A stretch of DNA of 64,000 nucleotides, taken from NCBI GenBank assembly GCA_027083345.1, contig JALWOZ010000030.1, forward strand, positions 977-64,976, given 5' to 3'. Numbering within the stretch: the stretch's first letter is position 1; every line of letters begins with the position of its first letter. A model generated the notes under the pieces. The model had not been told where the DNA came from and did no database searches. It saw only the letters and a program-made list of their open reading frames with translations. The stretch is from Candidatus Kaiserbacteria bacterium (GTDB taxonomy: Bacteria > Patescibacteriota > Minisyncoccia > Phycocordibacterales > UBA2100). Shown piece by piece: positions 29,900 through 32,800 of this stretch. The position numbers were made by a program, and so were the translations under genes.

Positions 29900-32800
29900 C
29901 CCATAGATGCCCTTCGACGAATTAGTACACCTCAGCTGAGTACCTTGCAGTACTTACACTTGGTGCCTATCAACGTAATCATCTCTTACGGGTCTCAAAT
30001 GATACCTAATCTTGAAGTTGGCTTCCCACTTAGATGCTTTCAGCGGTTATCCATGCCCGACATAGCTACTCGGCAGTGCTTCTGGCGAAACAGCCGATAG
30101 ACCAGAGGTCAGTCCATCCCGGTCCTCTCGTACTAGGGACAGATCTTCTCAAGTATCGACGCCTGCAGCAGATTATGACCAACCTGTCTCACGCTATGTT
30201 GTGGTCTATGCATTTGGACTATATCTTCATCCTTCATAGCTTTATACGAAGTAGGATGGTCTGCGTTTAGTCTCTACGGGGATTTCAAAGTTTAAAAGGA
30301 GGCCTGATTTATAATAAAATCAGGCGGGGGCGGGGGCTTCTCTCACCTTTCAGCTTAGGCACCCCTAACACTTAACCGGATTCGAACCGGATACAGCCAA
30401 CTCTAAGTGCTTCCCCTTTTAAACTTTGAAATCTTCCCTCGGTATTATCCTAACATCTGACGGGTTGTTATACAACCACATTATTCAGTTAGAGTTCCAC
30501 CGATATAGCAAACTTGAACACTACAATATTACTATTGTAGGCCGCCGTGATTTATGTCTTTAACCTCGTGGATTCAGACTGTTTAAAATACGATTATTCA
30601 TATTCTAAACGGTCTGAACCCAGCTCGCGTAACTTTTTAATTGGCGAACAGCCAAACCCTTGGGACCTGCTCCAGCCCCAGGATAAGTTGAGCCGACATC
30701 GAGGTGCCGAACACCGCCGTCGCTCTGGACGCTTAGGCGGTACCAGCCTGTTATCCCCAGGGTAACTTTTATCCGTTAATCTCCGGCCGCATCTAAAGCG
30801 TACCGTCGGTTCACTATGTTCTACTTTCGTACCTGCTCGGGTCGTACCCCTTGCAGTCAAGCTCTCTTATGCCATTACACTATCAGCATGGTTTCCATCC
30901 ACGCCTAGAGAACCTTTAAACTCCTCCGTTACTTTTTAGGAGGATAGCGCCCCACTAAAACTACCCACCAGATACTGTCTCGACGAGGTTTTGCCTCGCT
31001 GGTTAGGTGAAGCATAAACAAAGAGTGGTATTTCACTGACGACTCCACTATCCCCAAAAGAATAGCTTCAAAGTCTCCCACCTATTCTACGCATTGCAAA
31101 CACAACACCAATATCAAGCTGTAGTAAAGCTCCTGGGGTCTTTTCGTCTAGCTGCAGGTAGGCGGCATCTTTACCGCCATTGTATTTTCACCGGGCTCTT
31201 CCTCGAGACAGTGTCCCAGTCATTACGCCATTCGTGCACGTCTGAAATTACCAGACAAGGAATTACGCTACCTTAGGACCGTTATAGTTACGGCCGACAT
31301 TCACCGGGGCTTACATAGCCCAGCCTAACAAGTAAAACTCATTAGACCATCCATGTTTAACCTTCCGGCATTGGTCAGGCGTCACCCCGTATACATCCTC
31401 TTACGAGTTCGCACGGAGCTGTGTTTTTGATAAACAGTTGCCAGGACTCTTTCGCTGCGGCCCTCACACCGAAGTGCTTGGGCAGACCTTATCCCGAAGT
31501 TACGGTCGCTGTTTTGCCGAGTTCCTTGAGGAAGACTCACCCGTTCGCCTTGGTCTACTCGACCCTACCACCTGTGTTGGTTTGCGGTACGGTTTCTCTG
31601 TATTTATGCTTAGAAGCTTTTCTTGGAGGGCTCTTACTATGAATCTCTATCGGCCGAAGCCTCAAAATTTCTTCAATCTACACTCTTTGTGCAACCCGGA
31701 TTTGCCTAAGTTGCAGAGTTTAAGATCAAAAACACAAATCCAATAATGTGCTCATAGATGTTTCCCCCGTCTCTCCATCGCAATACAGAGAAGTTATGGA
31801 ATATTAACCATATGTCCATCGCCTCCAGCTTTCGCCATTGGCTTAGGCCCGACTAACCCGCAGATGAACTTCATTGCTGCGGAAACCTTGGTATTTCGGC
31901 GGACTGGACTCTCACCAGTCTTGCGGTTACTCGTGCCAACATTTTCACTTCTGCATGCTCCACGCTGGGTTATCCCCTTGCGCTTCATCGCCAACAGAAC
32001 GCTCTCCTACCGCTCATCGCGTCAGACGCGACAAGCCCGCGTTTTCGGTATTATACTTAGCCCCGATAATTTGCGGCGCAAAGTCTCTGAATGAGTGAGC
32101 TGTTACGCTATCTTTAAAGGGTGGCTGCTTCTAAGCCAACCTCCTCATTGTCTGAGAAACTTCACCTCCTTAAGTGCACTTAGTATAAATTTAGGGACCT
32201 TAAACTGCGATCTGGGCTGTTTCCCTTTCGAGCACAGGAGCTTCGCCCCCTGACTCTAACTGCCACGCTTTTAATCATTGGTATTCGGAGTTTGATAGAG
32301 TGGGCGAGGTTTCCCCCTATCCCGACTCATCCAGTGCTCTACCCCCAATGGGAACACGTGACGCCAACCCTAAAGCTGTTTCGGAGAGAACCAGCTATTA
32401 CGAGGTTCGATTGGCTTTTCACCCCTTACCACAAGTCATCCGAGCGTGTTGCACGGCGCGACGGTTCGGGCCTCCCCTTTGTTCTCACAAAGGTTCACCC
32501 TGCTCATGGTAAGCTCACCTCGTTTCGGGTCTATTGTAATACCTTTTAAGTTCGCGCTATTAACACTCGCTTTCGCTGTGCCTCCGCGGGACAACCGCTT
32601 AGACAAGGAATCACAATAACTCGTTGGCTCATTCTTCAATAGGCACGCCGTCGAGGTACAAGACCTCTCCGACTCCTTGTAGATGTATGGTTTCAGTTCT
32701 ATTTCACTCCCCTTATCGGGGTTCTTTTCACCTTTCCCTCACGGTACTTGTTCACTATCGATCTGAAAAAGTATTTAGCCTTACCGGTTAGTTCCGGTGG

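Follow-up and report, generated by a model that had tools for sequence, protein, structure and literature searches.

In 2007, thermophilic cyanobacteria were reported to contain introns with LAGLIDADG genes at position 2593 of the 23S rRNA (L2593; PMC1995217). A 2024 survey of rRNA insertions in the candidate phyla radiation (CPR, Patescibacteria) listed position 2593 among the recurrent LAGLIDADG_1 sites and reported, at sites 23IS6-14, LAGLIDADG-encoding introns plus shorter forms without an open reading frame (ORF) (Tsurumaki et al.; PMC11270868). Here we analysed a 64-kb stretch of contig JALWOZ010000030.1 (the window, by which the whole stretch is meant) in which the 23S rRNA gene is interrupted at this position. 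The L2593 group I introns of the CPR are an already known class, to which the window intron adds a member. With high confidence we read it as a self-splicing-type group I intron which interrupts the one visible 23S rRNA gene of a CPR bacterium, has lost its endonuclease gene and carries in P6 a cassette that is most likely the truncated descendant of a tRNA-like element.

In the Rfam scan of the whole window, a complete 23S rRNA of the bacterial type (29901..33356, minus strand, 2408.8 bits) was accompanied by a 5S rRNA at 29661..29767. The boundaries of the insert were determined by alignment of the exons to the annotated E. coli 23S rRNA (locus L001, 699..3602), the window intron having been taken out first. 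Opposite E. coli 2580-2610 (UGGGUUUAGAACGUCGUGAGACAGUUCGGUC) the window has ...UGGGUUCAGACCGU and CGUGAGACAGGUUGGUC, separated by 415 nt. The splice break falls between U2593 and C2594, i.e. at L2593. An initial annotation of this DNA had already named a position 2593-type site and an insertion with an exon U before it and G as its last base; the alignment bears out both. Upon removal of the 415 nt the exons were colinear with E. coli 23S rRNA (...GGGUUCAGACCGU/CGUGAGACAGG, splice site at the slash); as claimed before, the segment is therefore an insertion and not a native expansion segment. Moving the boundary by one base in either direction abolished the conserved CGUCGUGAG. The intron begins directly after the exon U, and its last base is the terminal G (omega-G) at 30194. 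The coordinates given earlier, 30195-30608 with about 414 nt, were off by one base at the start because this terminal G had been missed; the true length is 415 nt. In the E. coli sequence, position 2593 lies in the stretch which holds U2585 and A2602 of the peptidyl-transferase centre, and the interrupted gene is the single 23S rRNA gene visible in the window. Because of this location, a functional ribosome would need removal of the intron and religation of the exons. The site had also been ascribed to the I-CreI/I-CeuI region. I-CreI is the right neighbour, with its recognition sequence at 2586-2608; that of I-CeuI is found at E. coli 1911-1936, about 660 nt away. The nearest 23S exons among the fetched loci (L numbers) were those of L142 (90.0% identity) and L013 ('Patescibacteria group bacterium UBA2100', 89.7%). 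By sequence similarity, this supports a CPR host, the phylogenetic guess made at the outset.

The Rfam model RF00028, suggested earlier as a check, matched the insert end to end (model 1-253; 30206..30563, minus strand) with 44.3 bits and E 4.8e-10 in a 601-nt search. This match stayed below the gathering score of 50 bits, and the whole-window Rfam scan at the gathering threshold reported no intron in the insert. Comparative evidence was therefore sought. The window intron was aligned with 28 distinct ORF-less members of its lineage (alignment A1, 29 sequences, MAFFT). From A1 RNAalifold recovered an exon clamp (see below), a 5' hairpin H, P2, P3, P4, P5, P6, P8 and P9, with changes on both sides in 46/64 pairs. 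When P7, P1 and P10 were added as pseudoknots, 93.8% of 2131 cells were paired in the full model, compared to 33-42% in a control with the 3' partners slid by 1-3 columns. Both sides had changed in 46/74 pairs of this model, and all five measures were above those of all 500 shuffles (0/500). P3, P4, P5, P6 and P8 were backed by compensatory changes, P3 and P8 also within the 3' half of the core. P7 was invariant and paired in 29/29 aligned sequences, so that the core helices P3-P8 with the P3/P7 pseudoknot are all present. The window sequence itself forms every core helix. Mismatches of the window in P3 of A1 were traced to a one-column shift by MAFFT; read directly, GUUUGC/GCAGAC forms 6 bp. 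The P7/R-S motifs, described earlier as Tetrahymena-like, are indeed present: the J6/7-P7-P3' and J8/7-P7' strings (AGACUAAACGCAGACC, GAAGAUAUAGUCC) align to the RF00028 consensus and are essentially the same. In addition, the insert folds far better than its shuffles (z = -8.7). Two points weigh against the assignment. The RF00028 score leaves the insert below the curated threshold for membership, which is an operational cut-off and not a structural definition. Further, P1, P10 and P7 lack covariation support within the lineage; because they are invariant, they are compatible with the model and not independently supported by it. Since verified relatives also score 33-38 bits, RF00028 is a weak model for this intron lineage, and the comparative evidence is stronger than the score. 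By its sequence, the insert is a group I intron of the self-splicing type. Its P9 is a short variant which is common to L013, L061, L089 and L035 and recurs almost base for base in L142.

To collect the family, a single genome of each species was scanned for the P7 3' strand with G and the 3' exon behind it at a spacing of 4-34 nt (AGATATAGTC...GCGTGAGACAG). At least 119 species genomes have an insert which ends in the same P7 strand and G before CGUGAGACAG. Among the matches listed, most are Patescibacteria (Saccharibacteria, Parcubacteria/Paceibacteria, Jorgensenbacteria, Nomurabacteria, Woesebacteria); also represented are Omnitrophota, Eremiobacterota, some proteobacterial metagenome-assembled genomes (MAGs), one Thermosynechococcus and one Asgard MAG. 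From the listed genomes in which both exons were located 107 introns were extracted. They fall into two size classes, 233-515 nt and about 600-830 nt. Members of the long class contain sense-strand ORFs with a single LAGLIDADG motif (AYIAGFLDGDGSI...), one of which gave matches to I-CreI (E 6e-17, along almost the entire length) and to I-MsoI (E 5e-25). Endonuclease-containing variants, which had been suggested as something to search for in relatives, thus exist. The window intron has no ORF of at least 80 aa, a single-motif LAGLIDADG frame included, and no similarity to the LAGLIDADG proteins of the family, in line with the initial annotation. A decayed endonuclease gene in P6 of the window was considered and rejected: tblastn with 43 family ORFs yielded tiny hits at E >=0.01, and all six frames are full of stops. 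In endonuclease-bearing members the ORF starts inside a similar P6 5' strand. The window intron is an endonuclease-less derivative of the L2593, I-CreI-type homing introns.

Two lineages were distinguished. Lineage B comprises 48 introns, including that of Thermosynechococcus, which start with AAAUNAC..UUGCGUU; nearly all reside in hosts with the exon end AACGU, to which GCGUU pairs with a U.G at the splice site. Lineage A comprises 60 introns, including that of the window, exclusively in hosts with the exon end ACCGU. It has a nearly invariant AUCACGGCGG directly 5' of the GNRA-capped P2, which is the position of the guide in lineage B. Possibly, the 23S allele (C or A at E. coli 2590; loci L002-L120) sets which intron lineage invades or persists. 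The P7-5' and P7-3' motifs are 30-65 nt apart in lineage A, compared to about 95-113 nt in the majority of lineage B introns. In lineage B an element of about 60 nt, known from the literature as P7.1/P7.2, separates P7 from P3'; it is absent from lineage A. The window intron had been likened to the classic chloroplast-type 23S introns. This is correct for the site; structurally it does not belong to the chloroplast/cyanobacterial L2593 type with its P7.1/P7.2 extension of about 60-65 nt and represents a related lineage without it. Lineages A and B are related because the same conserved core strings occur in both. The full core, the guide, P10 and omega-G are kept across at least 60 lineage members.

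Positions 1-176 and 320-415 of the window intron are homologous to the family; about 177-327 match no member. In all 28 aligned ORF-less relatives P6 is a short hairpin, whereas in the window GGG-AA is followed by a 19-bp stem and three hairpins. The first of these is a tRNA-like minihelix. It had been noticed before on account of its T-arm CCGGUUCGAAUCCGG (30376..30390) and the acceptor-like stem, and both were recovered here. The acceptor-like stem of 7 bp (GCACUUA/UAAGUGU) is flush with the T-arm (CCGG-UUCGAAU-CCGG): as in tRNA, there is no gap between the 3' end of the T-arm and the 3' strand of the stem. The linker of 12 nt (GAGUUGGCUGUA) contains the D-loop consensus AGUUGG. The module continues with UAGG, not NCCA. 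Apart from one real tRNA, the T-arm string is the sole match in 64 kb (0.03 expected). A custom descriptor registered 7/7 acceptor pairs, 4/5 T-stem pairs, the loop UUCGAAU and the equivalent of G53-C61. In its strict form it matched 5/45 inserts against 0.065 by chance, the five being the window and four tRNA-bearing inserts of relatives. From acceptor strand to T-stem the window has 12 nt and the other four have 40-48 nt, the pattern expected if D-stem and anticodon arm were deleted.

The tRNA-bearing relatives came from a metagenome search for lineage A introns with a P6 insert of 139-169 nt of any sequence, which gave 56 loci with 44 distinct inserts among the matches listed. Six distinct inserts passed the Rfam gathering score for tRNA (29 bits) with 43.8-70.8 bits, and none of the 107 introns from the listed species genomes had a tRNA call; these frequencies (6/44 for inserts of 139-169 nt, 0/107 for species genomes) refer to the matches listed and are not population estimates. 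From the 0/107 we take it that intronic tRNAs are uncommon. All six cassettes are located in P6 on the rRNA sense strand and have the same layout: a long basal stem, spacer, tRNA, hairpin and basal stem. Several have abnormal anticodon loops. L142, the nearest relative by host and by intron, has a cloverleaf in P6. Endonuclease gene, tRNA cassette and window cassette thus all sit in the same P6 loop. In L130, a seventh case, the tRNA is nested in another group I intron of the 23S rRNA, at around E. coli 1930-1950; therefore a tRNA within an rRNA intron is not confined to L2593. The searchable literature, which covered few subscription journals and hence is weak evidence, contained no description of a tRNA, or of an element resembling one, within a group I intron of rRNA. 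L163 is peculiar in another respect. Its contig (Ga0080064_1004558) has UGUAAAACAGG as the 3' exon of the L2593 intron in place of the universal CGUGAGACAGG, with the end of a further intron about 100 nt upstream; the 23S rRNA gene of L163 may be a decaying copy. It carries the most canonical of the intronic tRNAs (Glu-UUC, 70.8 bits).

What then is the minihelix of the window? By its sequence it may be the truncated remnant of a tRNA-like cassette. Several findings speak against such a descent. The P6 insert has no sequence homolog among the 107 relatives and the metagenome introns searched. The module was not called a tRNA by ARAGORN or Rfam, irrespective of whether the window, the intron or the 66-nt module was submitted. 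Even the P6 inserts of L142 and the window share only short strings, with no convincing alignment. As neither a homolog nor a tRNA call is at hand, descent from a tRNA cassette is read from position, architecture and motifs. Identity as an actual tRNA or tmRNA is ruled out by ARAGORN (standard and relaxed) and Rfam (601-nt and 66-nt searches); the module yielded neither a regular ARAGORN call nor 29 bits with RF00005, and solely the permissive metazoan-mitochondrial mode of ARAGORN called it, as a D-armless tRNA. A partial copy of a host tRNA was dismissed, there being no convincing parent among the tRNAs of the window. Likewise, a mobile element of the miniature inverted-repeat type is not supported: the window contains no second copy of the 19-bp inverted repeat, and the string of T-arm and acceptor has no exact copy in the metagenome collection.

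This leaves three readings. That the cassette is a neutral remnant of a tRNA-like cassette is plausible, at somewhat less than an even chance. A serious though rather doubtful alternative is that the minihelix arose by chance or is purely structural, i.e. a T-loop module for tertiary contacts or a neutral leftover, without tRNA descent or a link to an enzyme. T-loop motifs are widespread as modules of structured RNAs, and the missing call by any bacterial-mode tool, the missing homolog and the missing parent among the host tRNAs of the window all fit this view. It has difficulty with the perfect T-loop consensus with the G53-C61 equivalent, the flush 7-bp stem and the AGUUGG in the linker, and more so with the descriptor result (5/45 versus 0.065), in which the other four hits are Rfam-significant tRNAs at the same intron position, and with the cloverleaf which the nearest relative L142 carries right there. 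Less likely is that the cassette is maintained as a handle by which enzymes that recognise tRNA, for instance RNase P, act on the intron. This is suggestive because the retained parts, acceptor stem, T-loop and D-loop GG, are those which such enzymes recognise; a single recent deletion would leave the same parts.

A more far-reaching proposal is that 23S introns of the CPR carry tRNA or tRNA-like cassettes in place of the endonuclease gene and that the cassette is a working part, either a tRNA gene that the excised intron releases or a handle for RNase P or other tRNA enzymes. We consider this speculative and unlikely at present. Such an enzyme might cut or mark the intron and make it harder for the ribozyme, which has a split guide of 13 nt complementary to the peptidyl-transferase centre, to bind again. 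The acceptor/T-arm/elbow minihelix of the window could then be the minimal functional form, which keeps the half of the tRNA that the enzymes recognise.

The second peculiarity of the intron is how the 5' exon is bound. GCGG of the internal guide pairs with the exon CCGU to form P1 with a U.G at the splice site; 4/4 pairs form in 57/60 lineage A members, and the U.G was present in 29/29 aligned members. UCACG, directly adjacent, pairs with the 3' exon CGUGA to form P10 (5/5 in the window and in 42/60 lineage A members), next to the omega-G. Between the two lineages, A or C at E. coli 2590 in the exon goes with U or G as the guide base. In lineage A the P1 loop is expanded to at least 60 nt and holds the variable hairpin H and then a clamp strand of 9 nt, which pairs with exon positions -13 to -5. 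The clamp is paired 9/9 in 54/60 lineage A members and follows the variation of the exon at E. coli 2586 and 2588 (CAGA/UCUG, UAGA/UCUA, CAAA/UUUG, UAAA/UUUA). In the 29-sequence count 100% of the clamp cells were paired and two columns had changed on both sides. Together, clamp and P1 bind 13 contiguous exon nucleotides via two separate segments of the intron, and in the model the two helices are able to stack.

The linker between clamp and guide (window 30551..30569 and its lineage A equivalents) contains conserved, unexplained motifs. One, CCGAGG, recurs as the P4-3'/P6 junction ACCGAGGG and on account of this identity could compete for the P4 5' strand; the window reads ACGAGG. The other, AAGACAUCAAUCAC, is also conserved in this linker of lineage A.

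We regard the GCGG guide as the probable one. Three observations count against it. According to the model, simultaneous formation of clamp and P1 would require a pseudoknot-like topology. In the minimum free energy fold U2593 is paired with an A in a hairpin of about 24 bp formed by exon and intron, not with the guide G. The competing pairs G(-2)-C and U(-1)-A (A1 columns 12/78 and 13/77) are possible in 29/29 and 24/29 sequences, respectively; since most members can form them, a competing conformer exists. Hence one may ask whether the long 5' hairpin itself is P1, a helix of about 24 bp in which U2593 pairs with A (intron 27), GCGG is not a guide and the cleavage site has a non-wobble U-A. 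The minimum free energy and centroid folds of the window agree on this hairpin, as do the folds of most relatives (partner of U2593 an A in 59/108, a G in 39/108). We think it quite improbable. To our knowledge, a U.G at the 5' splice site is near-universal in group I introns, and GCGG provides it in 29/29 sequences at the position homologous to the canonical guide of lineage B. GCGG is contiguous with the 5-nt P10 guide, exon position 2590 covaries with it between lineages, and there are members, L029 among them, whose hairpin does not pair CCGU. With GCGG retained as the guide, the long hairpin may be an alternative early conformer which hides the splice site.

The preferred sequence of events would be as follows. 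The guide UCACG-GCGG aligns the 5' exon CCGU (P1, U2593.G) with the 3' exon CGUGA (P10). The 9-bp clamp (intron 31-39 with exon -13 to -5) would act as a second exon-binding site, stack on the 4-bp P1 and hold the exon. A guanosine held in the invariant P7 would attack after U2593; the 3' OH of U2593 would then attack after the terminal G (30194) and join the exons, by which ...CGU-CGUGAG... is restored. We infer guanosine attack and exon ligation from the established chemistry of group I introns. The LAGLIDADG gene, located in the P6 loop of relatives, would have been lost; without an endonuclease the intron probably is immobile and presumably inherited vertically. In place of the gene P6 carries the cassette of about 150 nt, its first arm resembling the top half of a tRNA (acceptor stem, T-arm, D-loop-like GG). 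This would be either a decaying remnant or a site at which RNase P or other tRNA-processing enzymes recognise or enter the excised intron. A point to be held against this scheme is that we infer splicing as such from the need for an intact peptidyl-transferase centre.

That the insert is not spliced at all, and is retained or cut by RNase without ligation so that the 23S rRNA is expanded or fragmented, as with RNase III-processed intervening sequences (IVS) or the reportedly unspliced Simkania intron, is very improbable: the insert is known here from the gene sequence alone, its hairpin of about 24 bp and the 19-bp P6 stem are long enough as targets of double-strand RNases, and the same 23S rRNA has another, non-intron insertion, yet the site lies in the core of the peptidyl-transferase centre, a covariation-backed core with guide, P10 and omega-G kept in at least 60 members argues for selection on splicing, and known IVS differ in site and structure (PMC11270868). 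Instead of a simple end stem at a variable helix without ribozyme core, as in RNase III-type IVS, there is a full group I core at the peptidyl-transferase centre.

Features of the intron in the window and of tRNA-bearing cassettes in relatives (positions in the window or, for L entries, in the respective locus).
Feature	Position	Strand	Remarks and evidence
Group I intron, whole	30194..30608	-	415 nt; exon alignment to E. coli, RF00028 match, family alignment and covariation
5' exon -13..-1 (GGGUUCAGACCGU)	30609..30621	-	CCGU (-4..-1) in P1; -13..-5 paired with intron exon clamp
3' exon +1..+5 (CGUGA)	30189..30193	-	P10 partner
5' hairpin H (intron 1-11 with 16-27)	30582..30608	-	inside expanded P1 loop; minimum free energy fold; both sides changed in 12/12 pairs
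Exon clamp strand a' (UCUGAAUCC, intron 31-39)	30570..30578	-	pairs with exon -13..-5 (GGGUUCAGA)
Internal guide UCACG-GCGG (intron 59-67)	30542..30550	-	directly 5' of P2
P2 hairpin, GNRA (GUAA) loop	30521..30540	-	both sides changed in 8/8 pairs
P3 5' strand, P4, P5	30439..30513	-	family alignment, covariation
P3 5' strand	30508-30513	-	GUUUGC, read directly
P4	30498-30503 with 30439-30444	-	family alignment, covariation
P5 and P5a hairpin	30449-30494	-	family alignment, covariation
P6, conserved GGG/CCC base and unique extension of ~150 nt	30278..30438	-	family comparison
P6 insert, 19-bp perfect basal stem around three hairpins	30281..30433	-	stem 30415-30433 with 30281-30299; fold -60.7 kcal/mol
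tRNA-like minihelix, first hairpin of P6 insert	30368..30410	-	folding and custom descriptor
Core 3' half: J6/7 and P7 5' strand (GUAGAGACUAAA), P3 3' strand (GCAGAC), P8, J8/7 and P7 3' strand (GAAGAUAUAGUCC)	30216..30277	-	Rfam alignment
3' tail (AAAUGCAUAGACCACAACAUAG) ending in omega-G	30194..30215	-	rare short P9 variant without GNRA hairpin
tRNA in L163	797-870	-	70.8 bits; ARAGORN Glu-UUC
tRNA in L145	5256-5335	-	56.7 bits; ARAGORN call at relaxed thresholds only
tRNA in L141 (= L160, L172, same insert)	1570-1641	+	56.1 bits; ARAGORN 8-nt anticodon loop
tRNA in L169	428-501	+	51.1 bits; ARAGORN Val-AAC
tRNA in L171	257-330	+	48.4 bits; ARAGORN abnormal anticodon loop
tRNA in L142	406-476	-	43.8 bits; ARAGORN Gly-GCC, off-consensus D- and T-loops
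tRNA in L130 (seventh case)	4440-4509	-	51 bits; ARAGORN Lys-CUU; inside RF00028 match 4301-4729(-)

The gene is surrounded by ordinary bacterial genes, namely fusA, alaS (608 aa), pnp, nusA and type IV pilus genes. The 23S-5S pair is directly downstream of fusA (EF-G) on the same strand (region 29661..36271). The Rfam scan detected no 16S rRNA in the 64-kb window; the rRNA genes of this genome appear to be unlinked. The other insertion in the 23S rRNA gene (about 32920..33066, minus strand) lies in domain I behind E. coli ~289 and is roughly 100-147 nt long. Its fold is a single long irregular hairpin (z = -5.7); it matches no Rfam family and probably is an intervening sequence or expansion segment. 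A 648-aa ORF without Pfam match adjoins the 5S gene (27668..29614). A further ORF of 1581 aa (5967..10712, minus strand) combines a Peptidase_S74 (endosialidase chaperone) domain with a bacterial Ig-like surface domain.

As read from the gene, the ribosome of this CPR bacterium would depend on RNA splicing at its catalytic centre, a dependence which is already accepted for the phylum. Two aspects go beyond the published surveys. First, a large, CPR-centred L2593 lineage binds the 5' exon with a 4-bp P1 and a 9-bp clamp. This two-part binding is backed by unusually clean covariation between exon and intron and bears on the questions how a very short P1 works and how folding of the peptidyl-transferase centre waits for splicing. 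Second, tRNA-shaped cassettes occur in rRNA introns, with seven distinct cases at two intron sites in the loci examined. If functional, they would constitute a new kind of intron cargo, and tRNA genes could hide from annotation in reduced genomes because calls which overlap rRNA genes may be discarded. The truncated copy in the window is a pointer to this phenomenon and not a clear example of it.

How does the window intron compare with known systems? With the L2593 introns of the Chlamydomonas chloroplast (Cr.LSU), Synechococcus C9, S. lividus C1 and Thermosynechococcus elongatus (PMC1995217) it shares the insertion site, core strings (CCCGUAGAGACU, GAUGAAGAUAUAGUCC, AUAUCGGUGAA, AAUACCGAGGG) and the context of 3' exon and omega-G, and the endonucleases of its relatives are I-CreI-like. 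It differs by the absence of an ORF and of the P7.1/P7.2 of about 60 nt, by a guide GCGG for an ACCGU exon instead of GCGUU for AACGU, and by the expanded P1 loop with the exon clamp. The insertions at 2593 in the CPR survey (PMC11270868) agree in phylum, site and class, the latter being group I by Rfam at a relaxed E-value. The survey is silent on tRNA and offers no model of the secondary structure of this lineage; exon clamp and tRNA-like cassettes are absent from it, and no description of the clamp helix turned up in the searchable literature either.

Compared with the IC cores of the Tetrahymena/Azoarcus type, as represented by RF00028, J6/7-P7-P3' (GUAGAGACUAAACG...) and J8/7-P7' (GAAGAUAUAGUC) of the window are nearly identical, a GNRA loop caps P2, and in most lineage members L9 is likewise of the GNRA type. 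The P1 loop, P6 and P9 differ, and the RF00028 score is sub-threshold.

The tRNA-like domain of tmRNA and acceptor/T-arm minihelices are substrates of RNase P and of the CCA enzyme. As in these, the window module has a 7-bp acceptor stem on a T-arm, a canonical T-loop and a D-loop-like GG without D-stem, and no anticodon arm. Unlike them, it ends in UAGG instead of CCA or RCCA, is embedded in an intron helix, has a T-stem of 4 bp plus a U.U and gave no Rfam match to tmRNA or tRNA. Finally, tRNA genes are co-transcribed in rRNA operons, such as tRNA-Ile and tRNA-Ala in the 16S-23S spacer. The tRNA-shaped sequences of the relatives are likewise part of the pre-rRNA in sense orientation; in contrast to the spacer tRNAs they are located inside a 23S intron, several have abnormal anticodon loops, and the copy in the window is truncated to the acceptor/T-arm half.

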